Shown: piece after piece, positions 7,352 through 45,848 of the stretch
Position numbering within the stretch: position 1 is the first letter of the stretch
Layout of the letters: each line of letters opens with the position of its first letter
Assembly: GCA_030706745.1 (NCBI GenBank)
Contig: JAUZNX010000006.1
Coordinates: forward strand, 140,998 to 204,997
DNA length: 64,000 nucleotides
DNA from: Bacteroidota bacterium
GTDB taxonomy: Bacteria > Bacteroidota > Ignavibacteria > Palsa-1295
Reading direction: 5' to 3'
Position numbers and translations under genes: made by a program
The notes under the pieces: generated by a model
Database searches by the model: none
Seen by the model: the letters and a program-made list of their open reading frames with translations, nothing else
What the model was told of the DNA's origin: nothing

Positions 7352-7356
7352 AGGCT

Positions 7357-12587: not shown

Positions 12588-12591
12588 ATAG

Positions 12592-12625
12592 AAAGGCCGG
12601 GTCTTTGACCCGGCCTTTTCATTTC
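12592..12625 (+). terminator. Rho-independent terminator after clpC
   Basis: aaaGGCCGGGTctttgACCCGGCCtttt: 8-bp GC stem, 5-nt loop, T-run. Confidence 0.85.
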
Positions 12626-12651
12626 AACACAGCTTTGCTGTTGCCTGAGAG

Positions 12652-13839: not shown

Positions 13840-13944
13840 ATTGTTGAAATAGACGATGGAAACTTGAGTAGGCGGGACTCTGACGAAACGGACCGGAACA
13901 GGCGTGTCCGGGCTCTAGGAGTACGAGCAATCAGGGGGAATCGT

Positions 13945-14421
13945 TCACTTCTCCCCCGCAACCTTCGGCAAAGCCTGGTACTCCTCGGTGGAGCGGACGA
14001 TCGAGTCGATATATTCGAAAAGCTGTTCCGGATGGTAAGTATTTGGATGCAACCCTTGAATCGAGCCTTGCCACGTTATCGTGTGGTCCAGCGTATCGGC
14101 CTGGATGCGAAGCGAGTGGTGCAGCGTGTCGGTCTCGCTGGTATGGGTAAATTTGGCGGGCATTTGGTAGAAATGGAGCACCAGCGCCTTGTTCAGGATC
14201 AACAACTGCTGGCCCGGATCGAGTGTGATATTTGTCTGCGCGTAGTGGCCCGGCGCGATCTCCTTTTTGTAGTATCCTTCATACGTGTTCAGCTCGCTTT
14301 TGCCGGGATACGAGCACCGGATATCGACGTGGATGATATTCGTCGCCGTTTTCTCGCTTTTGAAATTAACAACGCATGAAGAGGCACACAGGGCAAGTGA
14401 CAAAACCAAGAGTGATTTCAT
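13945..14421 (-). CDS. Lipoprotein, hypothetical (start refined to MKSLLVLSLALCASSC...)
   Basis: Lipobox LCASSC. ATG confirmed. Stop of the upstream gene is 2 nt away, so they are co-transcribed. Confidence 0.6.
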   Translation of the reverse strand: MKSLLVLSLALCASSCVVNFKSEKTATNIIHVDIRCSYPGKSELNTYEGYYKKEIAPGHYAQTNITLDPGQQLLILNKALVLHFYQMPAKFTHTSETDTLHHSLRIQADTLDHTITWQGSIQGLHPNTYHPEQLFEYIDSIVRSTEEYQALPKVAGEK

Positions 14422-14423
14422 AG

Positions 14424-15743
14424 CTATTTGTTTATATCCAGTCTCATTCCGCAGGCATGACCGTAGGAATCGTAATTCTCGCCGAGAGCACCAAATCCAT
14501 AGGAATAGACGGCAATGGGAGACACGCAATTCACAACATGGCGACCAGCTTCCACTAATAGTGGTACGACACTCAGTTTGTCAGCTATTCGTGTATGCTT
14601 GACGTTTGGGCCAATCTTCCGGCCATCGACGCGGATCGAACTGAACGCGGAGTCGGGGGCCACAATATTGAGGTAATGATACCACTGACCTGTGCCGACG
14701 GAGGTCGTCGCTACTTCTTTGATAAACCGGTCGTTCGGCACTACGATCAGCATAAACGGATCGCCAATTTTGATGCTGTCTGCATTTGCACTCGTCGAGT
14801 ACTGCGCCACAAGCACTGGCTTCGAAGCCTGAATTTCTGCATCCGAATGAAGTGTGTCGATTTCGCAATATCCTCCCTTCTGCAAACTCGCCACGCGGGC
14901 GCCATTGAGAACGACCTCTGTTGAGTCCTCCCGCGCAATGACACGCACGACAGAATAGGTCTTGCCTTCGAACTTCGTCACGATAAATTCCTTTCCCCAA
15001 TCGTTGGCCGGCGGCTCCTCTTCGAGCAGCATATCGCAGAACTGCACGTCATTCGGCACTTGCGCGCATCGATGGCCGGTGAAGAAGGCGATGGGCTTGC
15101 TGGCTGTCACGATTGTTCCAGTCAGGTCACTATGCGCCGAATCGCCCGCGCCTTGTGATTGGAAGACTTCGCCACGGTTCAGCACAAACATGATCGTCCT
15201 TCCGGCAGGCTCGCCATCACGCGTCGTGGCAGTCAGATGGGCCGTCACGAGTGTATTGTCCTCGGTTGCGATAATTTCTGCCTGAGAAGTGAAAGTCGGA
15301 TAGCCTTGAGACATCAACGAGGCATAACCTGCTACGATATATTCCTTCCCAAGCATTGACGTTGGAATCGCCACATAGCTATCGGTGCTCGCCTTGCGAT
15401 GACTCACGGCCGTGAGTGTTATATCGTGATCGCACGTGACGTGAATGGACTTGCGCTCGACCTGCCCGCTGGAAGTGATAACGATCGACGAATCGATCTC
15501 AACGGGAATTTCCGCTCCATACTCGACCGAAAACGGGATCTTCCCTGTGTCGTTCATCAGCTGGATTGTGCCGGTCGTCCGCGAGTCAGACGTGATATGA
15601 AGGGTCAGCTCAATGGCGGTACCCTGCTCGTAAATGGCATTGGCCGGAAAGCAAATCCAGAAATCGCGGCCTTGATAGCCCTGCCCAAAAGCAGAGGCGG
15701 CGATACAAGTCAGGAAACAGGCGAGGATTATGCGTTGGATCAT
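14424..15743 (-). CDS. Secreted protein, possibly with an IgGFc-binding-protein N-terminal-like domain (tentative)
   Basis: Signal peptide MIQRIILACFLTCIAASAFGQ. C-terminal ...VYSYGFGALGENYDSYGHACGMRL resembles that family. Domain call is from memory only. Confidence 0.4.
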   Translation of the reverse strand: MIQRIILACFLTCIAASAFGQGYQGRDFWICFPANAIYEQGTAIELTLHITSDSRTTGTIQLMNDTGKIPFSVEYGAEIPVEIDSSIVITSSGQVERKSIHVTCDHDITLTAVSHRKASTDSYVAIPTSMLGKEYIVAGYASLMSQGYPTFTSQAEIIATEDNTLVTAHLTATTRDGEPAGRTIMFVLNRGEVFQSQGAGDSAHSDLTGTIVTASKPIAFFTGHRCAQVPNDVQFCDMLLEEEPPANDWGKEFIVTKFEGKTYSVVRVIAREDSTEVVLNGARVASLQKGGYCEIDTLHSDAEIQASKPVLVAQYSTSANADSIKIGDPFMLIVVPNDRFIKEVATTSVGTGQWYHYLNIVAPDSAFSSIRVDGRKIGPNVKHTRIADKLSVVPLLVEAGRHVVNCVSPIAVYSYGFGALGENYDSYGHACGMRLDINK

Positions 15744-15807
15744 TTGGCTGCGAATTTACGTGTAACATTCTCCCGGTTTCGAAGTTCTTATCATCGACAA
15801 GTAATTC

Positions 15808-17973
15808 GTGAGCACCCAACCCTACGTTATTCTGAGCGCAGTGAAGCATCGCTTGCCCTTCGGGGAGCGGTCCTTTAGGATTCGCTCTGTTCAGAAGAAG
15901 CTTTGCGTTGCACTCTTACTATTTGTGGTTTTGTCCTCCCTTGCCAATGCCCAGCCGCAGGAAAATCTCTGGCAAAAGCTTGCGACGTTCCCGCATAAGA
16001 TCTTCACGATTCAGTTTCTCGATATGCCAGGTCCTCCACGCATCGGGTTTGTGGGCGCAGATAGTATGGTCTATCGCACCACGAATGGCGGCGAAACCTG
16101 GCTGCCAACGGTGGCCTCCGATTACGGTTTCGATGCATCCGATTTCGCATTCAAAGATTCGCTCACTGGGTGGTTCTCCAATTGGTCATCGACTGGCGCT
16201 CCGTACTTCAAGACAACCGATGGCGGAGTGACGTGGTCCGCTCAGACCGCTCCGACCGCCTACTGCTCCTCGATATGTTATCGGCCAAAGCAAAATCTTC
16301 TCTTCCTATCTGTATGGCCCGTTCAGGGAATCAAACACTCGTGCCTATCTACCGATGAAGGTCTCACGTGGAGCGTGTTCGCGACCGATCCTCCACTCAA
16401 TGGCTACGCCTTCCTGAACGACGATAGTGGTATTGTTACACACTATCACGATCCCGGTTACTTGCGAACGACGGATGGCGGTTTGACCTGGACAGGCGTC
16501 CTTCGTGGCGGCAATGACGAGACCTGGCAACCCCTTGCTGATACCGTGCACCAACTCGTTTGGGCCGCATCGGAGAACCATCAGACCCTCAATGTCTCCT
16601 CGGATGGCGGACTGAACTTCGTCAGCTTGCTCCCGGGTCGCAAGTTCTGGACCACCGGCACGATGCGCGAGAGCCCCTGTGGTGCGCTCTTCGTCGAAGC
16701 AAACAATGACCCCAACAGTACGAGCAGCGGCATACTTCGATCGGACGACGGTGGCCAAACATGGCCGCCCGTCACAGATCGGCGCGGAAACATCGGACCG
16801 TCCGAAGAAAATGACACGCGATTTTATGTACGCGGCAGCTACATTTACGCGCCCGGTGAAGATGCCGCCGCAACGACCTTCACGTTGTGGCGATACATTG
16901 GAGACTCGACTGAGTATGATGGCGGGCACTTCGATCGTCCGCTGGCAGCATCGCATCGGATTGAGATCAATGGTTTACAGTGCGGCCCGACCGATTCTAC
17001 GTTCTTCATTCGTTATCTGAATGATTGTGTACCGGCCGTATTCGACTCGGCGAGAATCGAGCCACCATCGCGATTTCGTCTGGTACTTCGGGATACACTG
17101 CCCTACCCGATCAGTGGCGATTATCCGATTATTATCGAGCACGATCCGCTATTCCACACACCGGATACCGGGACGCTCTACCTCGCGTACCATTCGCACG
17201 GTGTAGCATATTACGACACCGTACGAATCACTGGCAACGTCGCCGGCAATCGCTTGCTACCCCACCTGACACTGCTCGCCAATGGCAATCCATCAGCACA
17301 AGTCAAAGCTGGTGATACTGTGTTGCTCACGCTGCGTCTGCTCGATTCCATCTCCGGCTCAACCGGACTCGATTCGATTCTGATGCAGACTTCATTCGAT
17401 AGCACGATGCTCGAGCTTGCTCCTGGCCCTGACGTCATGCCACCATTCTCGATCTTACGCGAATCGCACACACTTGGGAGCGAAACGCTCGTCGTGCGGC
17501 ACCCGCACGGGGAAGATTTGCCCGCAGGTACTGACATCGCGCGCATACCCTACCGGACATATCTCACGATAGGCCGCGAAGCAATTTACTCCGCCGATCA
17601 AATTCGTTTTAATGATACGCTCTTCGATGATTGCGTTGCAGCGGCATCCATCACGAATTCCCCATTTGACATCACCATCCTTGGCTGCGGCGATTCGACA
17701 CTCCGGGCTTTCATGCAAGGCGAGCCGCTGATTCAGATCCTGCGCGTCCAGAGTGGCAGCGAACCATCGATTGATCTGCATGCATCGCGAGATTTTGACG
17801 CAGAAGTTGTCGTCTTTACCGAACTGGGAATTCCAGTGAGAACGATTCCAATGTCGTTACTTTCTGGCGATCAGGCGGTGAGTCTTGAGGGATTGCCGAG
17901 CGGATTCTATATGATTGGAGTTCAATACCATGGGCGCTCCATTGCGCGAAGCAGAGTCGTTGTAGTTCGGTAG
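15808..17973 (+). CDS. BNR/Asp-box (Ycf48/sialidase-like) repeat protein with T9SS C-terminal sorting domain. 5' end uncertain: GTG at 15808, alternative GTG near 15841.
   Basis: Repeated TTNGGETW / TTDGGVTW / STDEGLTWS / TTDGGLTW / SSDGGLNF / SDDGGQTW boxes. C-terminal ...GLPSGFYMIGVQYHGRSIARSRVVVVR. Confidence 0.7.
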   Translation: MSTQPYVILSAVKHRLPFGERSFRIRSVQKKLCVALLLFVVLSSLANAQPQENLWQKLATFPHKIFTIQFLDMPGPPRIGFVGADSMVYRTTNGGETWLPTVASDYGFDASDFAFKDSLTGWFSNWSSTGAPYFKTTDGGVTWSAQTAPTAYCSSICYRPKQNLLFLSVWPVQGIKHSCLSTDEGLTWSVFATDPPLNGYAFLNDDSGIVTHYHDPGYLRTTDGGLTWTGVLRGGNDETWQPLADTVHQLVWAASENHQTLNVSSDGGLNFVSLLPGRKFWTTGTMRESPCGALFVEANNDPNSTSSGILRSDDGGQTWPPVTDRRGNIGPSEENDTRFYVRGSYIYAPGEDAAATTFTLWRYIGDSTEYDGGHFDRPLAASHRIEINGLQCGPTDSTFFIRYLNDCVPAVFDSARIEPPSRFRLVLRDTLPYPISGDYPIIIEHDPLFHTPDTGTLYLAYHSHGVAYYDTVRITGNVAGNRLLPHLTLLANGNPSAQVKAGDTVLLTLRLLDSISGSTGLDSILMQTSFDSTMLELAPGPDVMPPFSILRESHTLGSETLVVRHPHGEDLPAGTDIARIPYRTYLTIGREAIYSADQIRFNDTLFDDCVAAASITNSPFDITILGCGDSTLRAFMQGEPLIQILRVQSGSEPSIDLHASRDFDAEVVVFTELGIPVRTIPMSLLSGDQAVSLEGLPSGFYMIGVQYHGRSIARSRVVVVR

Positions 17974-17982
17974 CGTCTTTCT

Positions 17983-18795
17983 TCAGAGATATACGGACGC
18001 ACCCTTTGGAATAACACCCGTCAGCACTCCATAAATATAAGCTGCACCTAAACTTATGGCAAGGGAAAGCGCCATCAGACAAAAGTAGGCGACTGTTGTA
18101 GTCACAAACCGGAGAAAGAGGGCCACACCGCGATCGGCATAAACACGCCTCATGGCAACAAACAGATAGATCAGAAATGCAGTGAGTCCGGCGATCGTCA
18201 AATCGCCAGAATCGAGTGACACACCAGGAGCAAACACTATCAAAGCCAGGGAACACACGTAATAGGAGAATATGATGTGCTCCACATAGAGCCTCCTGCG
18301 GCCATAAAGGATTTTGAGGCTCAAAGCAAGGAGTGGTGCGGAAAAAATCAGAATTGTATAGGGCGCAATCTCGGTGACATAAGTTAGGATTGCCACTCCA
18401 TTCTGTCGCGCATGTGTTGCGTTGCTGGTGTTCACAGCAAGATTGAGGACTCCGGAGTGTGATGGGAGCGGTCGCTGAATCTTTTCCTTTGCCATCGAAC
18501 CGAAGAACAAGAAGAATACGATGCCTATCAGAAGATAGAGGCGCAACGGCTTCATGTAGCGTTGCCGCCGGCCTGCAGTATACTCCTTCATCAAAAACCC
18601 GGGCCGGAAGAGTGCAGGAACCGTGCGGACGAGCTTCGAATCAAGTTCGACAAACTCGCGCGATAGCTCCCTCAGATAATGCTTGACCGTTGGCAGCGCT
18701 GGCTCCATCTCCTCACCGCACGCCGGACAATACGTGCCCGATGATGCCACGCCGCAATCGGGACAAACCCTGACCTCAATCACTTCCATGTTCAT
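17983..18795 (-). CDS. DUF3667-like membrane protein with N-terminal zinc ribbon
   Basis: CPDCG...CPACG at the N-terminus followed by multiple TM segments. Confidence 0.55.
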   Translation of the reverse strand: MNMEVIEVRVCPDCGVASSGTYCPACGEEMEPALPTVKHYLRELSREFVELDSKLVRTVPALFRPGFLMKEYTAGRRQRYMKPLRLYLLIGIVFFLFFGSMAKEKIQRPLPSHSGVLNLAVNTSNATHARQNGVAILTYVTEIAPYTILIFSAPLLALSLKILYGRRRLYVEHIIFSYYVCSLALIVFAPGVSLDSGDLTIAGLTAFLIYLFVAMRRVYADRGVALFLRFVTTTVAYFCLMALSLAISLGAAYIYGVLTGVIPKGASVYL

Positions 18796-18829
18796 TCTAC
18801 AAAGATACCACCGTAACTAAAGCCCGCCG

Positions 18830-19579
18830 TCATCGCACTCCATTCATCCGTCGAAAGATTTGATCGGCAACATCCTTCGGTGCGCTCATCAGATTCGCTG
18901 CCATCCCAACCGCAATCTCCATTTTGTCTTCGGACATCCCCTTGATCGCAGCTTCCGCTACGTCCATTGCAGGAATGCCGCGGTCGGTTTGTCCGCGCCT
19001 GGCACGCGCACCACGATCGAGTTCGGTATCGACCGTCGGCGGGATGATCTCGAATACCTTGATACCGGTCGGCTGTAATTGATGCCGAAGTGAGATGGTG
19101 TACGAGTGGATCGCAGCCTTCGTCGCGCAATAGATCGGCATGGAGGCGATGGGGATAAAACCGAGACCCGAAGAGACATTGCAGATCGCCGCGTTCTGTT
19201 GCTTTAACAAGTGCGGCATGAGTCCTGCGGTGAGATAGACTGCACCCTCGAAATTGATTCGGAATTCGTTGTCACCTTCGTCGAGTGCCGGAATGCCACG
19301 CTTAAGATCGATCTCGCGCTGGATGCCGGCGTTGTTGATGAGGATGTTCACGCCTTCCGAGCGTGCCCAATCGGCGAGTGATGTCCGCTCCGATGCATCC
19401 GAAATATCGCTGACTTTCGTCAACAGTTCTGGTATAGCAACCTTCGCCTCCATGAGCTTTGCATCCCGCCTGCCACTGACGAGCACTGTGTTGGACGCGG
19501 CAACAAATGCGCGCGCCATCGCCAGGCCGATGCCCGTCGCGCCACCAGTAATGAGAATGGTATTGCCGGAGAGATTCAT
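18830..19579 (-). CDS. SDR family oxidoreductase
   Basis: TGGATGIG glycine motif and YxxxK catalytic motif (YCATKAA), 249 aa. Confidence 0.85.
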   Translation of the reverse strand: MNLSGNTILITGGATGIGLAMARAFVAASNTVLVSGRRDAKLMEAKVAIPELLTKVSDISDASERTSLADWARSEGVNILINNAGIQREIDLKRGIPALDEGDNEFRINFEGAVYLTAGLMPHLLKQQNAAICNVSSGLGFIPIASMPIYCATKAAIHSYTISLRHQLQPTGIKVFEIIPPTVDTELDRGARARRGQTDRGIPAMDVAEAAIKGMSEDKMEIAVGMAANLMSAPKDVADQIFRRMNGVR

Positions 19580-19671
19580 GTGTAAACGTGATTGATTGCA
19601 CCCAAACGACCCGACAAATTAACAGGTGCCGTGCACGGGGATGCCAGGCCTCCCCCAGTGGTCATCCTCCA

Positions 19672-20280
19672 TTATGTCCTGACAAATTCTGTAAGTAGTG
19701 AATAATTGCCATCATCTGCCGCGTGAAGGGCTTCGATGTATCGGTCGCGGGTTTCGCTCATTCGAGAGAGCGATTCGCTTCCCCAGGTAAATGGCGCTTG
19801 GCCATATTGCATGAGCAGAAGCTCCGTCAGCTCGCGCGCATGCCGGCCGTTTCCATTTTTGAAGTAATGGACTTTTACGATGCGATGATGAAACTCCGCA
19901 CCAAGCCGGTTCCATTCTGCTTGCGTTTTGGGTCTCGCGTGCTGCAATCGATACCGGAAGTCAGCAAGGATGTTCTCTGTTGCAGTAGCTATGATGTAGT
20001 AATCGGCAAATTTTTCATTCTGAAGCTGAACAATTCGGCGTTTGCCAGCCCATTTCCACACATCTCCGTACATTCGTTTATGCAGACGCTCCATGAATGC
20101 AGTTGTTAATAGGTCGCCATGCTTGCGAGCCCTCGACCACGCTCGGGACATGACGATATTCTGAAATTCCACCTCGTTGAGTTGCGACTGAGTTGCGATG
20201 TTCTTTGGGATCAGATCGCTCTCGTCGTTCGGGTCAATTGGTGTGGCACCTTCGGAATAATCGAATATCATTTCACCCAC
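19672..20280 (-). CDS. Fic-domain protein, 'mobile mystery protein B' type
   Basis: Fic motif HYFKNGNGRHAREL, about 200 aa. Immediately downstream of, and overlapping, the HTH partner. Confidence 0.7.
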   Translation of the reverse strand: MGEMIFDYSEGATPIDPNDESDLIPKNIATQSQLNEVEFQNIVMSRAWSRARKHGDLLTTAFMERLHKRMYGDVWKWAGKRRIVQLQNEKFADYYIIATATENILADFRYRLQHARPKTQAEWNRLGAEFHHRIVKVHYFKNGNGRHARELTELLLMQYGQAPFTWGSESLSRMSETRDRYIEALHAADDGNYSLLTEFVRT

Positions 20281-34762: not shown

Positions 34763-36652
34763 ATGTACCTCTCTAATATTAAGCTCTGGAATTTCCGAAA
34801 GTACGGACGCGCGGGTCAAGAGTCAACGCTCGATCTTCGGAACCCCCACTTGAGTCTCGACTTCTCGAATGGGCTCAATGTTCTGATCGGTGAGAACGAC
34901 TCGGGGAAATCAGCTATCATTGATGCAATTAAGCTCACGCTCAAGACGCAAAGCTACGAGTGGTTGAGAATTGAGCGAGAGGATTTTTTCAATGACTCCG
35001 CCAAGCTGAGAATAGAATTAGAGTTCGACGGTTTTAAGGACATCGAAGCAAAGAACTTTACTAAATGGTTAGGATGGAAAGAGAAGACTACCGAGACCGG
35101 GTCTAAGGAGAAGGTGCCATACTTGCGCTTGGTTTACGAGGTACAGCGCAAACTGGAGGAGGGAAGAATATTACCATCTGACGTGAGGGCTGGCGTCGAT
35201 GACGAGTGTTATCTTCTCGATGCCGGCGCAAAAGAATACCTGAAAGTCACTTACCTCAAGCCATTGCGCGATGCCGAGAGCGACTTGACCCCAAAGAGGA
35301 ATTCAAGACTGTCACAAATTCTTGCGAGCCACGAGGCTTTTAAGGGCAAAGAAACAACTCATTTTTTGGTCCGTCTTTTCGAGAGATTCAATGATTCCAT
35401 CCTTGGATATTTTGAAGGCGTGGACGTTGGGACTGACGGTAGCGAAGCGCCATCCCAGGATCAAGAAGGTAAGAAGCTGAAGGACAAAGTCGATAGTCTG
35501 CTCAGTGAGATGTACGATGAATCGAAAGAATCTAACTTTGATGTAACTTCGAAGAAGGAAGTAAAGGAGATTCTTGAGAAGCTCGAGTTGAGCTTGAAAA
35601 ATGACTTGAACCCTGGGCTCGGCACCCTGAACCGACTTTTTGTTTCTTCTGAATTGCTTCACCTTGAGAAGAAGGATTGGACTGGGCTACGCCTCGGCCT
35701 CATCGAAGAACTCGAAGCTCACCTTCATCCTCAGGCTCAAATGCGTATCATTGCGGCACTCCGAGAGATAAGCGGTACTCAACTGATTCTCACCACGCAC
35801 AGTCCGAATATTGGTTCAAAGGTCAAGTTAAAAGAATTGATCTTGTGTAGTGGCGACAATGTCTTTCCGATGAAGGATGGTTGCACCAGACTCAAAAGCC
35901 CCGACTACACATTTCTTGAGAGATTTCTCGACGCAACGAAAGCAAATCTATTTTTCGCGAAAGGAGTCATCCTTGTCGAAGGGTGGGCAGAGGAAATTCT
36001 GATTCCGGCTCTCGCCAAGGCCATTGATTGCGACCTTACGAAGAAGGGTGTTTCCGTCGTTAATGTCGGGAACCTCGCCTTCTTGCGATATTCCAGCATC
36101 TTTCAAAGGCAGGCTCCTCCCCCCATGGAGATGCCTGTGGCCGTCGTAACCGACCTCGACATTATGCCTGAGGATGAAGGTGCTGACGCAGAAAGTAAAA
36201 CAACAACCAAGAAGGCGAAGTACGATGGCGTACCAGTAAAAACATTCGTCTCCCCGCATTGGACCTTGGAGTACTGTATTGCAAGATCGACTAAACTCCG
36301 AAGGACATTCTACAAGGCAATCTTGGAGGCATTGCGTGAGAAAAAGGAGGATGAAGGAATGAGCGAGACCGGATTGGCAGAATATGTCACGGCAATTACG
36401 AATATAGACGTGCACTTCAATGGTTGGAGTAAGAGTGAAGCTGAGATAGCCAGTTCGATCTATTCTCAAATTTTGGGAGAAGCCAAGGTGCTGGAATTGG
36501 CCAGGGGCAAGATTTCGAAGACTATCATTGCCCAGCATTTCGCCAAGCTCCTGGATGAAGGGGCAGTTGCGAAGACTGATATCGAGACCGACACTAATAT
36601 TTCTTATCTCATCGATGCCATAAAGTATGCCTGCCGCGTTAGTAGTCACTAA
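34763..36652 (+). CDS. gajA: OLD-family ATP-dependent endonuclease, Gabija GajA-like (ABC-type ATPase + TOPRIM)
   Basis: N-terminal IKLWNFRKY...GENDSGKSAIIDAI (Walker A), LIEELEAHLHPQAQ (Walker B/H-loop), TOPRIM GVILVEGWAEEILIPALA. Strong SD AAAGGAGA before ATG 34763. GC lower than its surroundings. Confidence 0.8.
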   Translation: MYLSNIKLWNFRKYGRAGQESTLDLRNPHLSLDFSNGLNVLIGENDSGKSAIIDAIKLTLKTQSYEWLRIEREDFFNDSAKLRIELEFDGFKDIEAKNFTKWLGWKEKTTETGSKEKVPYLRLVYEVQRKLEEGRILPSDVRAGVDDECYLLDAGAKEYLKVTYLKPLRDAESDLTPKRNSRLSQILASHEAFKGKETTHFLVRLFERFNDSILGYFEGVDVGTDGSEAPSQDQEGKKLKDKVDSLLSEMYDESKESNFDVTSKKEVKEILEKLELSLKNDLNPGLGTLNRLFVSSELLHLEKKDWTGLRLGLIEELEAHLHPQAQMRIIAALREISGTQLILTTHSPNIGSKVKLKELILCSGDNVFPMKDGCTRLKSPDYTFLERFLDATKANLFFAKGVILVEGWAEEILIPALAKAIDCDLTKKGVSVVNVGNLAFLRYSSIFQRQAPPPMEMPVAVVTDLDIMPEDEGADAESKTTTKKAKYDGVPVKTFVSPHWTLEYCIARSTKLRRTFYKAILEALREKKEDEGMSETGLAEYVTAITNIDVHFNGWSKSEAEIASSIYSQILGEAKVLELARGKISKTIIAQHFAKLLDEGAVAKTDIETDTNISYLIDAIKYACRVSSH

Positions 36653-38651
36653 CGGTGACATCGAATACGCCGAGGGTATTCTGTTGCCCGCCGGCATGAC
36701 GTTCGATGATGAACGTCGGGCCTTCATTCGCAATTTTGAAACCATAGACCTTCAGGCCGTTCCAGGAAGTGGCAAGACAACAGCGCTCCTTGCCAAACTG
36801 CTGATTATCGAGAAGCATCTGCCTCTGAATGACGGATCTGGGGTCCTGGTACTTTCGCACACAAACGCAGCAGTGGATGAGATCAAGAATGCAATTGGCA
36901 TCCACTGTCCGAAGCTATTCGCGTATCCTAACTACGTCGGCACAATACAGAGCTTCACAGATAAATTCCTTGCAATACCCTACGGACACAACTGTCTCGG
37001 AGTTAGATTTGACCGTGTCGATTCAGAAGCTTTTTCGGAGAGGCTTTGGAAGAACTTCCGTCTCGTGCAACAACGCGAAGATTTCGGAAGTCTCGGGAAG
37101 TGGTTCTATGGCATGCACATTGCGACCGCGAAAGAAATCGCCGGAGAGAATAAGCCAGAGGTTAGGCGCCTCTGCAATGCGTTGATCGAAGCGCACGTGA
37201 AAAATATTCGTTACGACTACAACGAGGAATGCTTTAGGAATGGGATTGATGGTAAAGCGCTCCTGAAGTCGAAGACCAATCCAAAATTTAATGCACTGCT
37301 GGCGATTACTCAAGAAACTTTCGCCGAGGGTTATCTTTCGTTTGATTACGCCTATATCCTTGCCAAGCATTATCTCATTCTTGTCCCTGAGCTTACCCCA
37401 ATTGTGAGAAAGCGATTCCCATACGTCTTCGTTGATGAGATGCAAGATATGGATCCCCACCAATACACCTTGTTAGAGACGCTTTTTGCACCTTCGGGGC
37501 CTCATCAACCCATTTATCAAAGGATCGGAGACAAGAACCAAGCGATATACGAGGGGCTTACCGGGGAGATTTGGCAGGATCGAGCGCCTGATCGAATACT
37601 CTCCCTAAAAGGGTCATATCGCTTGAGCAGTCAAGTCGCAAAAGTCGTGCAGCCATTCGCCCTCACTCCTATAGCAATAGATGGGCGGCGGGAGCTTCGT
37701 GTGCCAATTAAGCCTTGCTTGTTGGTTTATACCGAGCCTTCGCACGTGATTAATGAGTACATCCGAATTATCCGAACGCATGTCGACTCCGGGGCTATTC
37801 CATCCAATACAGCAAATGGGTTCCATGCAATCTGTTGGGTGACGAAAGAGAAAGAGACGGAAACGACACTCTCTAGATACTTTGCTGATTTCAAGCGTGT
37901 CAAACAAGAGTCAGGTTCAAATTATTATTGCCTTAGGGCTTACTTCGATGCGATGGATCCGGTAAGTCAGTGCGTGAGAGCAATACGTAGTCATCTCATC
38001 AACGCCATTCTGAAGGTGTTACGACTTGAAGATATACGCGATGAGAACAATAGATACTATACGCAAGCGCGCTTTCTTCGCCAATTGAATCAACTTGACC
38101 TCACGCGAGATACAAAATATTCGGACGAATTTAATTTTCAGCTCTTTCAATGGTGCAGTGCGGTGGCAAACGGGAAGACTACTGAGGCCCTGAGGGACCT
38201 GCGCATCTTCCTTCCTAATCTGTTGGGCTGGCTTGACAAGACTCTTACGAAAGCGGACGCGATCACATTTGTCAATGCAGACTCAGCATCGAGTCAATCG
38301 GTTGGGGAGAATACCTCCGAAAGTCGAGATGTAAACGTTGCCATCGAGCCATCGGGAGACATTAGGATTGAAGTGTCAAACGTTCACGCAGTAAAGGGAC
38401 ACACGCACACAGCAACGTTGTACATGGAGTCCTTTTACCAGAAAATGTATGAGTCATCCAGACTCCCCGGACCTTTCCTGAATGGCAGTGCTAAGATCAA
38501 AGGAACGTACCAGAATGAAACCGCAAGGTTGCTCTACGTAGGTTTCTCGCGTCCGACGCATCTGCTTTGCTTCGCGGTTCACAAGGAGCGATTTGAAGCT
38601 CATTTAAGTGCGATTGACAGAGATATTTGGGAAATCGTGGAGGTATCGTGA
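36627..38651 (+). CDS. gajB: UvrD-like superfamily-1 helicase, Gabija GajB-like. Alternative start ATG at 36696.
   Basis: Walker A AVPGSGKTTAL. Motif II VFVDEMQDMD. IGDKNQAIY, SYRLSSQV, VHAVKGHTHTATL, LYVGFSRPTHLL match the GajB/UvrD motif set. Overlaps gajA by 26 nt. Confidence 0.8.
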   Translation: MPAALVVTNGDIEYAEGILLPAGMTFDDERRAFIRNFETIDLQAVPGSGKTTALLAKLLIIEKHLPLNDGSGVLVLSHTNAAVDEIKNAIGIHCPKLFAYPNYVGTIQSFTDKFLAIPYGHNCLGVRFDRVDSEAFSERLWKNFRLVQQREDFGSLGKWFYGMHIATAKEIAGENKPEVRRLCNALIEAHVKNIRYDYNEECFRNGIDGKALLKSKTNPKFNALLAITQETFAEGYLSFDYAYILAKHYLILVPELTPIVRKRFPYVFVDEMQDMDPHQYTLLETLFAPSGPHQPIYQRIGDKNQAIYEGLTGEIWQDRAPDRILSLKGSYRLSSQVAKVVQPFALTPIAIDGRRELRVPIKPCLLVYTEPSHVINEYIRIIRTHVDSGAIPSNTANGFHAICWVTKEKETETTLSRYFADFKRVKQESGSNYYCLRAYFDAMDPVSQCVRAIRSHLINAILKVLRLEDIRDENNRYYTQARFLRQLNQLDLTRDTKYSDEFNFQLFQWCSAVANGKTTEALRDLRIFLPNLLGWLDKTLTKADAITFVNADSASSQSVGENTSESRDVNVAIEPSGDIRIEVSNVHAVKGHTHTATLYMESFYQKMYESSRLPGPFLNGSAKIKGTYQNETARLLYVGFSRPTHLLCFAVHKERFEAHLSAIDRDIWEIVEVS

Positions 38652-38660
38652 GGTGTGGGT

Positions 38661-38781
38661 AACTCGCGCTCAGGGTCGAGCGTCGCGGGGCTGGCGGGTC
38701 TTTGGAGCCTCAGCCATGCCCATGGTTGCTCATTGCAACGCTAGCAAACGAACAGGGTGGTGCTACCGGGAGTTCGGGCGC
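38661..38781. repeat. Direct repeat R1 (~120 nt) immediately after the gajB stop
   Basis: aactcgcgc..cgcggggctggcgggtctttggagcctcagccatgcc ... gctcattgcaacgctagcaaacgaacagggtggtgctaccgggagttcgggcgc repeated at 40398–40542. Confidence 0.85.
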
Positions 38782-38809
38782 GTGGAGGCAAGTAGGGTGT
38801 AGCTCGTCT

Positions 38810-40096
38810 CTACGTGATGCTTCCAGCGGGATAGAGCGCGGGAAAGATATACGGGACTGCTTTGATCGGAAAAGTTAGCCGAAGCGCGCCAAGCGGAGTG
38901 AGTGAAGTGACAAGTTCCAGTTTGGTGAGAGCCTGCGTAATTCTCCTTGCGGAGCGATCCGATGTACCAGTCAGCCTGGCTACCTCGCTTCGCGGAAGTT
39001 CTCCTCTTAAGAAAATCTCCGTAAGAAGATATTTCGCGCTCGTGTCGAGCACTCCTTGCAACGCAAGAAGTTCGACATATTGCGTAAGACGATCGAGCAT
39101 CGCGTTGGTCTCGAGCAGACCAGACATAAAGTTCACTTGATCGATTGCAACATCGAGCAAAAAATCGACGAAGTCATCCAGTCCGCGTTGCGAGAGATTG
39201 CCGCGTCCATCATAATTGTTGTAACGGGGTGCATCTGCGGCCTCCAGTGCTTTATAGTATTCCTCCCTTTTCCGCGCAATACCGCGGGAGAGCGACCACA
39301 GCCCATTACTATCCAGATCTGCCCTCATAAAATAGAGGTGCGTAAAAAGCCTGACAACCCGTCCATTCCCATCTAAGAAGGGATGGATCCACGCGAGTCG
39401 GTGATGTGCTGCAATAGCGGCGATAATTCTCTTCACGGAGCCGAGAGGAGTTGGAGAATAGACTTCGTGAAATCGCTCCATGAACTGAGGGATCGAGGAG
39501 TGCTGCGGCGGAACATGCTTGCCGACTTGCACATCATCCCGTCTAAATTTGCCTGGCACGACTTTCAGCACGTTGCCGGCAGTCGCACGGACTAATTTGA
39601 ATTCTTCCGGGAGCTTATCGTAAAAGCTTTTGTGCATGCTCAGGAGAAACTCCGGTGACGCAACATCGACATCTGAAGAATCTCGTAGCTCTCGCTCAAA
39701 CTGTTCCTGCACCTCGATATGTGCTCGCCCTTCAATCTGCAACGCCTTCTTGCGAGGCTCCGCAGAGTAATCGTTCTTTTGTGCGCGCTCGAGGTCCAAT
39801 GGATGCGTGACATTTCCCTCGATGAGATTGGAATAATAGCTATTCATCAGCCGAAGGAGCTGAGAGGTCTGACGCTGGGTGATGGGATGGAGTTTGCCCG
39901 AAAGCTGTTGCGATCGTTTGAGGAGTTCAACCGCTTTCTCTTCGAGACTTGGGCGGGCGGGCCACATCGGCTCCATTTGAGAGATTCCGCTGTACATGGG
40001 CATCACAGCCTTCCGGGCCACTGATTTCCCATTTAGCTTGGCACTTTTGGCCGACTTATTGGCCGACTTATTGGCCGACTTATTGGCCGACTTCAT
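38810..40096 (-). CDS. Fic family protein (Fic domain + C-terminal winged-helix) with a KSAN-repeat N-terminus encoded by a 12-nt tandem repeat. Alternative starts at internal Met residues (MPMYSG...).
   Basis: Fic motif HPFLDGNGRVVRL. ATG at 40096 confirmed. 428 aa. Confidence 0.8.
   Translation of the reverse strand: MKSANKSANKSANKSAKSAKLNGKSVARKAVMPMYSGISQMEPMWPARPSLEEKAVELLKRSQQLSGKLHPITQRQTSQLLRLMNSYYSNLIEGNVTHPLDLERAQKNDYSAEPRKKALQIEGRAHIEVQEQFERELRDSSDVDVASPEFLLSMHKSFYDKLPEEFKLVRATAGNVLKVVPGKFRRDDVQVGKHVPPQHSSIPQFMERFHEVYSPTPLGSVKRIIAAIAAHHRLAWIHPFLDGNGRVVRLFTHLYFMRADLDSNGLWSLSRGIARKREEYYKALEAADAPRYNNYDGRGNLSQRGLDDFVDFLLDVAIDQVNFMSGLLETNAMLDRLTQYVELLALQGVLDTSAKYLLTEIFLRGELPRSEVARLTGTSDRSARRITQALTKLELVTSLTPLGALRLTFPIKAVPYIFPALYPAGSIT
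40047..40093. repeat. 12-nt tandem repeat (TTGGCCGACTTA, about 4 copies) lying in-frame in the first codons of the Fic gene
   Basis: Read directly. Encodes (KSAN)n. Confidence 0.9.
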
Positions 40097-40232
40097 AATA
40101 AGTTATAATCCTCATAAATTAGCAAGATTAGCCGAATACGAACAGGAAACTTCAATCCCGGCAATCGAATTCCCGAGAAGTTGGACCGTTATTTTGGCCG
40201 AGTTGTGAGGTGGACCTTTGAGTGGATCTAAA

Positions 40233-40285
40233 GGACATAAACCATTGGAACTCTATTACGTTTGGCTTTGCCAAACGTAATAGAG
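40233..40285. repeat. Perfect palindrome: 25-bp stem with 3-nt loop (ccattggaactctattacgtttggc ttt gccaaacgtaatagagttccaatgg)
   Basis: Read directly, no mismatches. Confidence 0.9.
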
Positions 40286-40299
40286 TTCCAATGGTAGCA

Positions 40300-40335
40300 G
40301 AAGCACATGCAAGCGGCTGTTCGCTTAAGCGAACA
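40300..40335. repeat. Perfect 36-nt palindrome (gcaagcggctgttcgctt|aagcgaacagccgcttgc)
   Basis: Read directly, no mismatches. 14 nt downstream of the first palindrome. Confidence 0.9.
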
Positions 40336-40397
40336 GCCGCTTGCAGCAAAGTGATTCCAGCTTAGGGAATAGCGAAGAGTGAAACTTCTCAGTGTTC

Positions 40398-40542
40398 GCG
40401 TGGGCCGAACTCGCGCCCCGGGTCACATCGGCGCGGGGGCTGGCGGGTCTTTGGAGCCTCAGCCATGCCACCAATAGCATGATAGGTCATCCCTAATTGC
40501 TCATTGCAACGCTGGCAAACGAACAGGGTGGTGCTACCGGGA
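40398..40542. repeat. Direct repeat R2 (~145 nt, with an approximately 22-nt internal insertion relative to R1), 50 nt upstream of the AbrB-like gene
   Basis: Same sequence blocks as R1. Confidence 0.85.
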
Positions 40543-40591
40543 GTTCGGGCGCCTTCAACGAATGTGGTCTCGCTCGTGTTATGGAATCACT

Positions 40592-40810
40592 ATGGACCGC
40601 ATTGATTTTGAAGGCACGGTAGAGGGCGATGGCATCATCCGCATCCCCGCTGAGTATAAGCGCGAGCTTGTGAAGGGCGAGACGGTGCATGTATCGCTCT
40701 CCGTTGGTAAGCGCCGCACCCGCCTTGTCGATCGTATGATCAATCATCCCGTTCCCGTCGATGAGTTCACACCCTTGACGCGCGAAGAGATATACGACCG
40801 TACGATTTGA
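40592..40810 (+). CDS. AbrB/MazE/SpoVT-fold (swapped-hairpin) DNA-binding protein, orphan
   Basis: MDRIDFEGTVEGDGIIRIPAEYKRELVKGETVHVSL resembles the AbrB/MazE N-terminal domain. About 72 aa from the internal ATG. Confidence 0.55.
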   Translation: MDRIDFEGTVEGDGIIRIPAEYKRELVKGETVHVSLSVGKRRTRLVDRMINHPVPVDEFTPLTREEIYDRTI

Positions 40811-41081
40811 TCTTCCTCGACTCTACTCCGAAGACATGCAGAATGGCATGCGCATCCGCAATCGGATGACCGTTCGGAATCCGTTTGCGTAGTCCTGTGC
40901 GCTTCTGCGCGCAAGCTAAAGCATGCGCTACACTGGAATTATTGCGCCCAATCCCCCGTTTCCCGCCAGTTCAAAAAGTTTACATAACAGCTCCAACGAG
41001 GAGCAAGCTGTCCGGCGGCTTTGATAGCGCGAGGTTCCGGGCAGATGTTCAATTTCACGGCGCTATACGACATTACTTATA

Positions 41082-41466: not shown

Positions 41467-43728
41467 ATGAAATACGACGTACAGTACGGCAACGGCAAAT
41501 CGATGCAGTTCGATGTAGGCCGGTATGCCAAGCAATCGAACGGATCCGTGATGGTCCGTCTCGGCGACACGATGTCGCTGGTCAACGCAGTCGCCGCCGA
41601 AAAGGAAAAAGAAGGCATTGACTTTATGCCGCTGCAGGTAGAATTCCGCGAGCGCGCGGCTGCCGCCGGCAAGATTCCGGGAGGCTACTTCAAGCGCGAA
41701 GCCCGCCCAACCGAGAAAGAAATTCTCTCCGCCCGTCAGATCGATCGTCCGATCCGCCCGATGTTCCCGAAGGACTGGCGCGTCGAGACGCAGATCGTCG
41801 CGACCATCTTCTGTTCCGATCAGGAGCACGATGCCGACACGATCACCGCAACTGCGGCCTCGCTTGCGCTGCTCATCTCCGACATTCCATTCGAAGAGCC
41901 GGTCGCGGAAGTACGCATTGCACGCGTCAACGGCCAGATCATCATCGATCCGACCTACACCGAACTTCAAACGGCTGACTACGAGTTCGTCGTCGCCGGG
42001 ACGAAGGATTCGATCCTGATGGTTGAAGGCGAGTCGCACGAGATCAGCGAGACCGAGTTTATCGAAGCGCTCCGCGCCGGCTCGAACGCCGTTCGTGAAC
42101 TCTGCATCGGTCAGGAGCGCATCGTCAAAGAGTGTGGCCTCGCAAAGCCGAAGCGCATCAAGGACGAGCACATCATGGACCCGGCGCTCATCGCGCAGGT
42201 CGAAGCCCTTGCCGCGCCAAAGCTGCGCGAGCTTGCCAAGACTGTGCTCGCAAAGGAAGAACGCTCACTGCAAACGCACTCGGCCCGTGACGCAACACGC
42301 AAGGCACTCACCGAGACTGTCGGCGAGTTGCAGTTCGAGCACATCCGCGGCGATGTCGATCATATCCTGTATGACATCGAGAAGCGTGAGATGCGTAATA
42401 TGATCCTGGATAACAACCATCGTCTCGATGGACGTAACTCCACGCAAATTCGTCCGATCGAGTGCGAAGTTGCCGTTCTGCCACGCGTGCATGGCTCTGC
42501 TGTCTTCCAACGCGGTGAGACGCAATCGCTGACAAGCTGCACGCTTGGCACCAAGCGCGACGAGCAGAACATCGAGGGTCTCTTCCCCGAGACGACCAAG
42601 CGGTTCATGCTGCATTACAATTTCCCGCCGTATTCCGTCGGTGAGGTTGGACGTTACAGCGGAACCGGTCGCCGCGAAATCGGCCACGGCAATCTCGCCG
42701 AGCGCGCGATCAAGTTGCTGCTTCCGACCGTCGAAGAATTTCCATATACGCTCCGTATCGTGAGCGATATTCTCGAAAGCAACGGATCGAGTTCCATGGC
42801 GACGGTTTGCGCCGGCACGCTGGCACTCTTCGATGCTGGTGTACCGCTGAAGAAGCCCGTGAGCGGCATTGCGATGGGCCTCATCAAGGAAGGTGATCGC
42901 GTCGCGATCCTTTCGGACATTCTCGGTAACGAGGATCATCTTGGCGACATGGACTTCAAAGTCTGCGGCACGCGTGATGGTATCACCGCCTGCCAGATGG
43001 ATATGAAGATCAAGGGCATCGACTTCGATCTGCTCGAGAAGGCGCTGATGCAAGCGCGCGATGGCCGCTTGCACATTCTCGGCAAGATGGCGGAGGCTCT
43101 CTCGGGACCGAAATCCGAGCTCTCGCAATACGCGCCGCGTCTCACGACAGTCAAGGTGCCGGTCGATTGTATCGGACTCGTCATCGGACCTGGTGGCAAG
43201 ACGATCCGCCAGATTCAGGCCGATGCTGGCGTCGAGATCAACATCGAGGAAGATGGAACGGTCACGATCGCTGCGCTTTCGGGCGAGGCGTCGGATCGCG
43301 CAAAGCAGTTTATTATGGCGCTCGTCGCGGAGCCGGAAGAAGGCGGGACCTACTCCGGTCGCGTCACCCAGGTCCGCGAAGGACTGGGTGCGATCGTCGA
43401 ATTCCTTCCCAAGAAGGAAGGCTTGCTCCATATTTCGGAGATCGATTACCAGCGCGTCGAGAACGTCTCGGATGTCATCCAGGTGGGTGATGTCTTTGAC
43501 GTAAAGCTCATCGCTGTCAAGCCCGACGGCAAGTTCTCGCTGTCGCGCAAGGCGTTGCTTCCGGTACCGGAAGGCTACGAGGAGCGTCCACGTGAGCGCC
43601 GCGAAGGCGGCGGCGACCGCGGTGGTTACGGCGACCGACGCGGTGGCGGCGATCGTCGTGGCGGCGGAGATCGCGGCGGCGACCGGCGCAATGGAGGTGG
43701 CGGCGGATTCCGCGACCGAAGGAATTAA
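41467..43728 (+). CDS. pnp: Polyribonucleotide nucleotidyltransferase (PNPase) with RGG/RGD-rich C-terminal tail
   Basis: Two RNase PH domains, KH and S1 domains. ATG 41467 confirmed. Tail ...GGGDRGGYGDRRGGGDRRGGGDRGGDRRNGGGGGFRDRRN. Confidence 0.95.
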   Translation: MKYDVQYGNGKSMQFDVGRYAKQSNGSVMVRLGDTMSLVNAVAAEKEKEGIDFMPLQVEFRERAAAAGKIPGGYFKREARPTEKEILSARQIDRPIRPMFPKDWRVETQIVATIFCSDQEHDADTITATAASLALLISDIPFEEPVAEVRIARVNGQIIIDPTYTELQTADYEFVVAGTKDSILMVEGESHEISETEFIEALRAGSNAVRELCIGQERIVKECGLAKPKRIKDEHIMDPALIAQVEALAAPKLRELAKTVLAKEERSLQTHSARDATRKALTETVGELQFEHIRGDVDHILYDIEKREMRNMILDNNHRLDGRNSTQIRPIECEVAVLPRVHGSAVFQRGETQSLTSCTLGTKRDEQNIEGLFPETTKRFMLHYNFPPYSVGEVGRYSGTGRREIGHGNLAERAIKLLLPTVEEFPYTLRIVSDILESNGSSSMATVCAGTLALFDAGVPLKKPVSGIAMGLIKEGDRVAILSDILGNEDHLGDMDFKVCGTRDGITACQMDMKIKGIDFDLLEKALMQARDGRLHILGKMAEALSGPKSELSQYAPRLTTVKVPVDCIGLVIGPGGKTIRQIQADAGVEINIEEDGTVTIAALSGEASDRAKQFIMALVAEPEEGGTYSGRVTQVREGLGAIVEFLPKKEGLLHISEIDYQRVENVSDVIQVGDVFDVKLIAVKPDGKFSLSRKALLPVPEGYEERPRERREGGGDRGGYGDRRGGGDRRGGGDRGGDRRNGGGGGFRDRRN

Positions 43729-45266: not shown

Positions 45267-45506
45267 CTACGACACTGCTTCCATCTCACGCGTGTGCAGA
45301 ATCTCATGTCCGGTAAACGGCCGAACATCCGCTCGTTCCAGTGTCAGCACATCGATGGTCTTGCCTCCGGCGGTCATAAATTCTACTTCAAATGCCTTCC
45401 CATCAGCATAAACCCCGACTACCGTGCCAATATCACCGCGCGCAAGTCCCAGATCGTCGATGTCATGCTCGAGAACGACAAGATCATGTTCTTTAATCAT
45501 CTTCAA
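45267..45506 (-). CDS. DUF4926-like small protein
   Basis: 79 aa; VVLEHDIDDLGLARGDIGTVVGVYADGKAFEVEF pattern. Confidence 0.5.
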   Translation of the reverse strand: MKMIKEHDLVVLEHDIDDLGLARGDIGTVVGVYADGKAFEVEFMTAGGKTIDVLTLERADVRPFTGHEILHTREMEAVS

Positions 45507-45515
45507 TGGTCCCTA

Positions 45516-45847
45516 TTATAAAGGATAAGCCGAGATTAGGCGTGGTATGGTTCCACCACGGTCGATCATCCAGATGGTCCTCAAAGACAGTGGCAACCCG
45601 TTGGGAGTCCGAAGTCGCCCTTCCACGACAAATTTCATCCCGTGTACGGTTTCGGATGATTGAGTCACGGGATTTTCCTGTGCTACTTGAAGGAGTGCTT
45701 GTCTCAACTCATCCAGGCGTTCGACGCTAAATCCACGGGAAAAGAATACAACAGCCTTCTCCTTACCTTCGGCATGAGTGGTTGAAAGGAGATACTCTGT
45801 TAGCTTTGAGTCGGCAACAACTGCCCGCTCCACATTCGGCAGCTTCA

Positions 45848-45848
<1 letters not shown>
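45516..45848 (-). CDS. DUF6883-like protein (start refined to MKLPNVERAVVADSKLTEYLLS...)
   Basis: Usual partner of DUF4926 genes. Its ATG overlaps the gyrB stop (TGATG). Confidence 0.45.

Follow-up and report, generated by a model that had tools for sequence, protein, structure and literature searches.

The 64,000-nt stretch of Bacteroidota DNA analysed here (the window; contig JAUZNX010000006.1, positions 140,998 to 204,997) carries two adjacent perfect palindromes, Pal1 and Pal2, upstream of a Fic gene of the SoFic type. Comparison with related loci indicates that the palindromes belong to a mobile SoFic unit and that they are maintained as palindromes. How they act can be given only as a ranked guess. 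The explanation that we place first, with a probability of roughly one in three, is that Pal1 and Pal2 together form a bidirectional hairpin insulator at the promoter-side boundary of this unit. Its main rival is an auto-operator bound by the SoFic protein itself.

Pal1 (40241..40295, no strand assigned) consists of two 26-nt arms, 40241-40266 and 40270-40295, which are 100% complementary and enclose a 3-nt loop, TTT on the + strand. By direct reading and with a repeat finder, its sequence is ACCATTGGAACTCTATTACGTTTGGC ttt GCCAAACGTAATAGAGTTCCAATGGT, with a core of CGTTTGGC-nnn-GCCAAACG and outer arms GGAACT/AGTTCC. Pal2 (40308..40345, no strand assigned) is the outermost feature of the SoFic upstream region. 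It is a loopless perfect palindrome of 38 nt, whose arms of 19+19 nt (40308-40326 and 40327-40345) are again 100% complementary and read, by the same two procedures, TGCAAGCGGCTGTTCGCTT directly followed by AAGCGAACAGCCGCTTGCA. Measured from the annotated Fic ATG at 40096, Pal1 is 145-199 nt and Pal2 212-249 nt upstream. A junction segment of 53 nt without strand (40346..40398), which matches only itself and has no homology elsewhere, separates Pal2 from a direct repeat, R2. The existence of two long perfect palindromes had been recognized in a sequence-only reading of this DNA, which gave a 25-bp stem and 36 nt, both slightly short of the 26-bp arms and the 38 nt found here; its span of 40233-40335 starts 8 nt too early and drops the last 10 nt of Pal2.

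According to the repeat finder, Pal1 and Pal2 are the two strongest inverted repeats of the whole window. With 3 mismatches allowed, each arm matches only its own palindrome across the 64 kb, and shuffled sequences gave 0.00-0.02 matches. By chance, a perfect inverted repeat is expected 1.6e-10 times per 64 kb with 26-bp arms and 2.6e-6 times with 19-bp arms; together with the single-copy arms, these values bear out the earlier claim that the palindromes lie beyond chance. The 136-nt palindrome region folds with -81.5 kcal/mol (z = -12 to -14.5 relative to shuffles). The core TTGGC-N3-GCCAA occurs once in the window, at Pal1, and elsewhere only in the palindromes of the two related loci L089 and L005, apart from two chance-level matches in loci totalling about 1 Mb. 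The palindromes are unlikely to be an assembly artefact, as the locus is present in four assemblies, among them contig JAUZOI010000007.1 of the metagenome-assembled genome (MAG) GCA_030706525.1, and a homologous pair is found on an independent metagenome contig (L089). No tRNA or tmRNA gene was found in the window, and Rfam gave nothing in it at gathering thresholds, relaxed E-values adding only sub-threshold matches to generic hairpins (miRNA).

The comparison that places the palindromes in the SoFic unit drew on 78 SoFic-family loci from many phyla, which are labelled by L-numbers. A pair of adjacent palindromes is present in the window, in L089 (VFSW01013409.1) and in L005 (GCA_044449045.1). 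Relative to the ATG, Pal1 covers roughly -140 to -200 and Pal2 roughly -190 to -250. The SoFic proteins of the three loci are 72-81% identical, and their flanking genes differ: Gabija and rpsO in the window, an AAA_15/21 ATPase and a zeta toxin in L089, and an RRM protein and HTH/SMC genes in L005. Outside the SoFic unit the loci share no homology. As the same module stands amid unrelated neighbours, the palindromes are linked to SoFic and not to the neighbourhood or to the 72-amino-acid (aa) open reading frame (ORF) next to it in the window. The L089 module reads AAATGCATTCGTTGGC ttc GCCAACGAATGCATTT and then ATGGAACTGCATCTCGTTTGGC aaa GCCAAACGAGATGAAGTTCCAT; its segment 3823-3869 is the homologue of the window's Pal1, and its segment 3786-3818, perfect with 16-bp arms, is the positional equivalent of Pal2. 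In L005 the equivalent of Pal2, CATTCGTTGGC aaa GCCAACGAATG at 3979-4003, is also perfect, with 11-bp arms, and 4016-4051 is a degenerate copy of Pal1 from which 11 nt of the left inner arm have been deleted. The homology of L089 and L005 begins at the first base of Pal2, which is thus the left-most sequence that they have in common.

The symmetry of the palindromes appears to be better kept than their sequence. When Pal1 of the window is aligned with that of L089, 18 pairs are invariant, 3 have changed on both sides and 0 on one side only; there is one G/A mismatch, and the outermost pair has also changed and was lost to an alignment offset. The double-sided changes are suggestive of maintained symmetry. 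The sequence of Pal2 is not conserved between the window and L089 or L005, yet it is perfect in all three. In the five palindromes pooled, 93/94 stem pairs are Watson-Crick and 0 are G·U, as expected if both strands must fold. Taken together, the full-length symmetry, the double-sided changes and the turnover of the Pal2 sequence argue for selection on a hairpin or dyad and not on two short half-sites. The absence of G·U pairs points in turn to pairing needed on both strands, that is, to a function at the DNA level or to transcripts from both directions.

The module is, by this comparison, clade-specific and dispensable, and it falls outside the part that all SoFic units have in common. Its dispensability follows from L095, a close relative of L089 that is devoid of palindromes: the two SoFic proteins are 94% identical, and the upstream homology extends only from the distal operator-type box (see below) inward. 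More distant SoFic relatives have other hairpins or none.

If Pal1 and Pal2 are an insulator, a transcript entering from either side would fold into the same very stable 26- and 19-bp hairpins, because both are perfect DNA palindromes. These hairpins, we infer, would stop or pause RNA polymerase, or they would be cut as double-stranded RNA. The auto-repressed SoFic promoter with its TCGGCCAAA boxes (its direction and the position of the transcription start being putative) would be the sole source of toxin mRNA wherever the unit lands, and no transcription would leak across the unit boundary, so that the pair would act as a portable insulator. Shielding from read-through would be beneficial, since SoFic is toxic and binds its own promoter (PMC12249575; bioRxiv 10.64898/2026.07.09.737422).

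Several related loci carry elements that are consistent with this explanation. In a Geobacter-type SoFic unit, the outermost conserved element is a canonical terminator, GGGACCagaaTGGTCCCTTTTTT, which faces SoFic about 25 nt before the distal boxes. L006 and L009 have T-tailed hairpins, GTGTAGCAC...GTGCTACACGCGTTTTT, some 35 nt upstream of their box. Upstream of Pal2 in L089 and L005 lies a gene or gene remnant in the same orientation as SoFic, the end of which is 40-110 nt away. Past the palindromes the sequence is weakly T-rich, more so when read in the SoFic direction. Pal1 and Pal2 thus resemble insulating intrinsic terminators in that they are stable hairpins just outside the promoter/operator region, with a structure kept via compensatory change, and in that the Geobacter-type units have a canonical terminator at the equivalent place. 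They differ from such terminators in lacking a U-tract, in having stems 2-4x longer and no G·U pairs, and in being a tandem pair; moreover, in the window no gene reads into them.

A number of observations weigh against the insulator. Neither palindrome is followed by a proper U-tract in the window, L089 or L005. On the Fic strand of the window Pal1 is followed by TTTATGTCCTTT and Pal2 by TGTGCTTCTGCT, and the + strand has no tail; a loose terminator scan takes Pal1 only after its stem has been trimmed. The earlier statement that no U-tract follows was essentially right, and the palindromes are, as also stated there, not classical terminators. The sole clear terminator in the window, at 12586-12624, is canonical and bidirectional, with A-/T-tracts (AAATAGAAAGGCCGGGTC...GACCCGGCCTTTTCATTT), and perfect stems of 26 bp far exceed what a terminator needs. 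In the window the palindromes lie between divergent genes and no annotated unit reads toward SoFic, which means that an insulator function would here be inherited and not in use. The core of Pal1 (CGTTTGGCaaaGCCAAACG) and its outer arms are conserved in sequence, which is not required of a purely structural element. The upstream region of L095 has kept its boxes and shows no palindromes and no obvious replacement hairpin. Hairpins of at least 10 bp occur in 17/77 SoFic upstream regions versus 20/101 ordinary intergenic regions, which does not support hairpins as a general hallmark of SoFic upstream regions. Finally, the palindrome comparison rests on three loci, which makes the comparative statistics thin, and the shuffle control for the compensatory changes in Pal1 gave 68/500, which is not significant with two sequences. 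Independently of the palindromes, terminator-like matches in positions 1-20000 of the window were at chance level (18 versus 17.5 in shuffles).

The main rival to the insulator requires a closer look at the cis-elements nearer to the gene. Direct repeats of TCGGCCAA(A) lie upstream of SoFic genes, with copies typically paired 12 nt apart and two or more of them in 56 of 78 loci; TCGGCCA/CGGCCAA is found at least twice between -350 and +60 in 49-56 of the 78 SoFic loci and in none of the control regions. The window has a proximal box array (40047..40093, - strand) of 12-mers, TAAGTCGGCCAA on the Fic strand, with the box motif TCGGCCAA. Three full periods and a partial fourth fill 47 nt, with four CGGCCA cores at +7/+19/+31/+43, and the repeat finder reports the array as three overlapping 23-nt copies at 12-nt spacing. 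A distal operator-type box (40180..40204, - strand; AACTCGGCCAAAATAACGGTCCAAC on the Fic strand) contains two TCGGCCAAA units at a distance of 12 nt, the one good and the other degenerate, and is the fourth copy of the window repeat family D1. The 12-mer repeat that had been treated as a feature of its own belongs to this family-wide array of TCGGCCAAA operator-type boxes.

The proximal array is annotated as N-terminal K-S-A-N repeats of the Fic protein, and the conserved SoFic core starts only at M41 (MEPM, ATG 39976), 120 nt inside the annotated ATG at 40096. In relatives the proximal boxes are found 38-100 nt before the conserved MEPM codon and, depending on the lineage, they fall in frame 2 (KSAK), in frame 0 (SRPN/TRPK) or outside any ORF, so that their conservation must be at the DNA level. 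The K-S-A-N tail is probably an annotation by-product of the operator array. Since published work places the binding of the SoFic dimer to its own promoter within 100 bp of the start (bioRxiv 10.64898/2026.07.09.737422), the TCGGCCAAA boxes are probably the SoFic auto-operator and the main operator of the family.

The palindromes could then be distal auto-operators, to which the SoFic dimer binds through its two winged helix-turn-helix (wHTH) domains in cooperation with the TCGGCCAAA boxes, for example by looping. We regard this as possible, although short of probable. There is a precedent for self-repression by a Fic protein with a helix-turn-helix domain: CccR of Yersinia pseudotuberculosis, a dimer, represses its own gene via a 46-bp inverted-repeat operator, AGATAATCAT-N26-ATGATAATCT, which is a 10-N26-10 inverted repeat (PMC9755527). 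Here, too, inverted repeats are found in the gene's own upstream region, 145-249 nt before the SoFic ATG, and the gene likewise encodes a class II Fic protein with a C-terminal DNA-binding domain. The DNA-binding helices of the CccR dimer are widely spaced, and the conserved outer hexamers GGAACT/AGTTCC of Pal1 span 43 bp in the window and L089, which is near the CccR footprint; in both systems there is an inverted repeat of about 45-55 bp. The palindrome cores hold inverted GCCAAA(C), the same half-site as in the family-wide boxes; GCCAAACG is common to the box and the Pal1 of L089, and the core TTGGC-N3-GCCAA is confined to Pal1 in the 64 kb. The 11-nt deletion in Pal1 of L005 amounts to one helical turn and leaves the outer arms in phase. 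A DNA-level site would also be expected to show perfect Watson-Crick symmetry and to lie between divergent genes, upstream of the promoter.

Other findings disagree with an auto-operator. The conserved cis-element of the family is the 12-nt-period direct repeat and not a palindrome, and the published binding of dimeric SoFic to its promoter peaks within the 100 bp directly upstream of the start rather than at -150 to -250 (bioRxiv 10.64898/2026.07.09.737422). The window and L089/L005 have a nearly identical wHTH recognition region, yet the sequence of Pal2 is not conserved between them. All 55 bp of Pal1 are symmetric and compensatory changes are seen at non-conserved positions, neither of which two half-sites would need, and L095 keeps its boxes without palindromes. 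The parallel with CccR is limited in the same way. Only the 10-bp ends of its operator are symmetric, as opposed to the whole 55 bp of Pal1 and 38 bp of Pal2; the window has two palindromes, putative sites only, which are 145-250 nt upstream and not on the promoter; and the SoFic family already has another conserved element in the direct TCGGCCAAA repeats. An auto-operator would account for the core and outer arms of Pal1 and for the GCCAAA half-site, but not for Pal2, for the symmetry of the spacer or for L095.

A further explanation, which we consider unlikely, is that the palindromes are DNA hairpins used for or left by movement of a cassette. They would extrude as hairpins or cruciforms at the end of the unit and serve as break, recombination or template-switch sites, or they would be junction products of hairpin or snap-back processing of the ends upon insertion. 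The Fic gene does behave as a mobile cassette, as had been suggested from the sequence: two direct repeats, R1 (38655..38781, + strand) and R2 (40399..40552, + strand), bracket exactly the SoFic gene and the palindromes, and the module is found amid unrelated neighbours in L089 and L005. R1 lies between the stop codons of gajB (38651) and SoFic (38810), whereas R2 is the promoter-side copy and has a 22-nt insertion relative to R1. They share blocks of 56 nt at 98% and 34 nt at 100% identity, and the repeated sequence R spans from the gajB stop to just before the 72-aa ORF. R1/R2 were rejected as a structured RNA (fold z of -0.9 to +0.8) and as a dispersed repeat, only two copies being present in the window and none upstream of gajA.

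Such bracketing is not confined to the window. In 15/76 loci, the window included and L069 also among them, the SoFic gene lies between direct repeats of 60-360 nt, and a matched comparison gave 6/42 SoFic loci versus 3/168 control intervals. The downstream copy usually begins 5-120 nt after the SoFic stop. The repeats are locus-specific and heterogeneous in origin. In L054 (5725-5798/7332-7405) they comprise the last 31 nt of tRNA-Phe and 43 nt downstream; in other loci they correspond to the 5' part of the downstream gene (L074, L032), to gene 3' ends (L005, L052, L038) or to a whole small gene (L006). Among the bracketing repeats is one that includes the 3' end of a RAYT/IS200-like gene. 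Genes or fragments of this kind (Y1 transposase-type, assigned by eye from the N-terminal sequence) were seen only at two distant Geobacter loci, just upstream of the SoFic units of L052 (4887-5573) and L032 (about 1400-1560).

The Geobacter-type SoFic unit has sharp ends. It is about 1.55 kb long and recurs with 83-88% nucleotide identity in at least 8 unrelated contexts (L036 5626-7214, with equivalents in L024, L045, L055, L059, L051, L052, L032 and L037). Its left end is GCAGGGTATCATGCTGAG plus the canonical terminator, its right end falls 2-6 nt after the stop codon, and no terminal inverted repeats were found in it. In L036, a Geobacter MAG, a 48-nt loopless perfect palindrome (5599-5646) straddles the left unit terminus. 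Its right arm belongs to the unit and is shared with L024, L045 and L059; its left arm repeats the right one in inverted form. Another perfect palindrome, with 14-bp arms and a 5-nt loop, lies 26 nt further out (5540-5572).

Lineage-specific elements of about 70 nt were also noticed after the stop codons of consecutive defence or toxin-antitoxin (TA)-like genes, for example TAATTACTCCGGCGGCTTGCAGACCTTGCAGGGCTGGTAATATTTTTTCGCAACGGAGAGCGGGAG, which gives the look of a cassette array without attC features. Such elements are at 3680-3747 and 5273-5340 in L089, at 1825-1888 in L095 and at 5447-5522 and 9033-9107 in L005, and in each of these loci one follows the SoFic stop. In L002 a 72-nt element (D1 of that locus) is present three times (723-794, 3085-3156 and 4606-4677), each time after a stop codon, and separates three genes. 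An alignment of R with the ~70-nt element of L089/L095/L005 or with D1 of L002 was unconvincing, and homology between them was rejected.

A role in movement is favoured by the location of Pal2 at the outermost end of the unit shared by L089 and L005, by the loopless palindrome exactly on the left terminus in L036, by the sharp ends of the units and by the long bracketing repeats, and perfect arms without G·U would fit an intrastrand, hairpin-templated correction of DNA. Against it, no recombinase, transposase, HUH nuclease or protelomerase was found within +/-10 kb in a gene list with Pfam families, nor inside the 1.6-kb bracketed segment. Because they are orthologous across proteins that are only 72-81% identical, the palindromes are inherited features and not fresh junction scars. 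The L095 unit exists without them, and the origin of the direct repeats is mixed, as described above.

Known mobile elements offer only partial parallels. As in integrons, a single defence or toxin gene is bounded by repeats that start right after the stop codon (R in the window, the ~70-nt element in L089/L095/L005, D1 in L002), and hairpin structure rather than sequence is conserved. An attC site was nevertheless rejected, and the proposed comparison with att sites came out negative: there is no RYYYAAC-N30-150-GTTRRRY (R''/R') pair on either strand of 38601-40620 and no integrase within +/-10 kb, the hairpins are perfect, without extrahelical bases, and lie 5' and not 3' of the SoFic gene, and R has no significant fold. 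The comparison with ends of single-stranded DNA transposons fared no better, as hairpins at one end only and no transposase in the bracketed segment or within 10 kb speak against IS200/IS605 or other HUH hairpin ends. The targets of protelomerases (TelN/TelK/ResT) are perfect palindromes of 40-56 bp, loopless ones included. Pal1 and Pal2 differ from them in being chromosome-internal, with no protelomerase gene nearby and no sequence similarity. An exact look-up of the 72-aa protein gave the same four contigs only, and no empty site was found; the literature on direct-repeat-flanked, integrase-less defence cassettes yielded nothing specific.

In its most specific form, for which the odds are lower still, the palindromes would be the terminal hairpin module of a minimal, recombinase-less defence cassette that moves by an undescribed mechanism. 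Such a unit might measure about 1.5 kb and comprise terminal hairpins, operator boxes and the ORF, ending 2-30 nt after the stop. Its movement might leave target duplications of 60-360 bp, such as the tRNA-Phe 3' end or the first 90-120 nt of a downstream gene; the duplication in the window might be the whole intergenic region R from gajB to the vapB-like ORF, with palindromes arising at the junction sometimes, as in L036. Hairpin formation at the unit end might then be part of insertion or excision, for example through hairpin-provoked breaks or template switching.

It is more doubtful again that Pal1 and Pal2 are a selfish or neutral palindrome resembling repetitive extragenic palindromic (REP) sequences or miniature inverted-repeat transposable elements, an ancestral insertion upstream of SoFic with self-correcting symmetry and no role for SoFic. 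Repeated hairpins do occur near other SoFic genes, namely GTGTAGCAC...GTGCTACAC in 2-3 copies in L006 and L009 and GTACATCGCCCTTnCAGGGC upstream in L096 and L098; the module is dispensable, as L095 indicates, and the hairpin frequency upstream of SoFic is ordinary. The REP-like hairpins of the Ignavibacteriota loci are at 4822-4885 and 6651-6714 in L006 and at -334..-105 upstream of SoFic in L009. REP sequences and the bacterial interspersed mosaic elements (BIME) that they form are multi-copy intergenic palindromes, which can stabilise or terminate transcripts and provoke recombination. Pal1 and Pal2 are similar in being intergenic palindromes, which in REP/BIME are sometimes in adjacent pairs, and related SoFic loci carry REP-like repeats. 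They are, however, single-copy in every sequence available, perfect, and 55 and 38 nt long, whereas REPs are usually imperfect and 20-40 nt. Neither the palindromes nor the core recur in the 64 kb of the window, in the 10 kb of L005 or in the 6.4 kb of L089, and in three genomes the module keeps its place relative to the SoFic start. Plasmid and phage blastn gave no similarity. An exact search for the palindromes in genome, metagenome and viral collections gave 0 matches, although it missed the window locus itself and is thus weak. The sequence-only reading had named copies at many unrelated intergenic sites as evidence for a generic REP-type element; none turned up in the 64 kb or in these three public collections, a weak test with the window's own genome absent from them. 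Some weight stays with a selfish element because the rest of that genome lay outside the searched collections.

By far the least credible proposal is that the palindromes are operators of the 72-aa ORF (40592-40810), an alleged AbrB/VapB-like regulator whose arrangement with SoFic is divergent: the ORF has no Pfam or PADLOC match, the palindromes lie 247-351 nt upstream and are separated from its ATG by R2, it lies outside the R1/R2-bracketed SoFic segment that includes them, and L089 and L005 carry palindromes with no homologue of it nearby. The AbrB-fold neighbour suggested earlier as the binding partner is thereby disfavoured. The likeness of the ORF (+ strand) to AbrB/MazE-type antitoxins was seen by eye only and is unverified, as is that of 40797-40892 (+ strand, another frame; ...YSEDMQNGMRIRNRMTVRNPFA*) to the C-terminal end of a PIN/VapC protein. 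Together they may be a decayed vapBC-type module.

The Fic gene (38810..40096, - strand) encodes a class II protein with the inhibitory motif SNLIEG, the catalytic motif HPFLDGNGRVVR and a C-terminal wHTH region. It matches Pfam Fic with 3.8e-16 and the PADLOC SoFic profile with 8.4e-36, nearly end to end (residues 55-399). SNLIEG and HPFLDGNGRVVR are invariant across the family alignment and conform to the N-terminal (S/T)xxxE(G/N) and the HxFx(D/E)GNGRxxR of SoFic genes. Its relatives in the PDB are SoFic and FICD, and its closest SoFic homologues are 61-75% identical. The gene is accordingly assigned to the SoFic-type anti-phage defence genes, with a predicted defence activity; SoFic is described as a toxic abortive-infection effector (PMC12249575).

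SoFic adjoins a complete Gabija system (34763-38651) composed of gajA (34763-36652, + strand, 629 aa, PADLOC 2e-215) and gajB (36627-38651, + strand, 674 aa, PADLOC 6.7e-201), which overlap by 26 nt. The 72-aa ORF, rpsO and pnp are found on the other side, and Gabija and SoFic together are a small defence island upstream of rpsO-pnp. Further along, the end of the PNPase gene (43591-43728) encodes an arginine/glycine-rich tail (GGDRGGYGDRRGGGDRRGGGDRGGDRRNGGGGGFRDRRN) built from imperfect tandem repeats, and a small TA-like pair of DUF6883 and DUF4926 genes (45267-45848, - strand) is flanked by gyrB and an SdpI-family gene. L002 likewise has a DUF4926 gene ahead of its repeat array.

SoFic is an abortive-infection system of a single gene, and its control is only beginning to be understood, the binding to its own promoter having been reported in 2026. 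The layout of the control region suggested by our comparison consists of family-wide TCGGCCAAA boxes with a 12-nt period and a clade-specific outer pair of palindromes. If the palindromes are insulators, they would illustrate how a toxic defence gene can be kept silent at any site to which horizontal transfer brings it. As operators they would instead be the second example, after CccR, of a long-range palindromic operator of a Fic-wHTH protein. Also of note is that sharp-ended SoFic units with long, target-derived repeats and no recombinase hint at an unrecognised route by which single defence genes may move.

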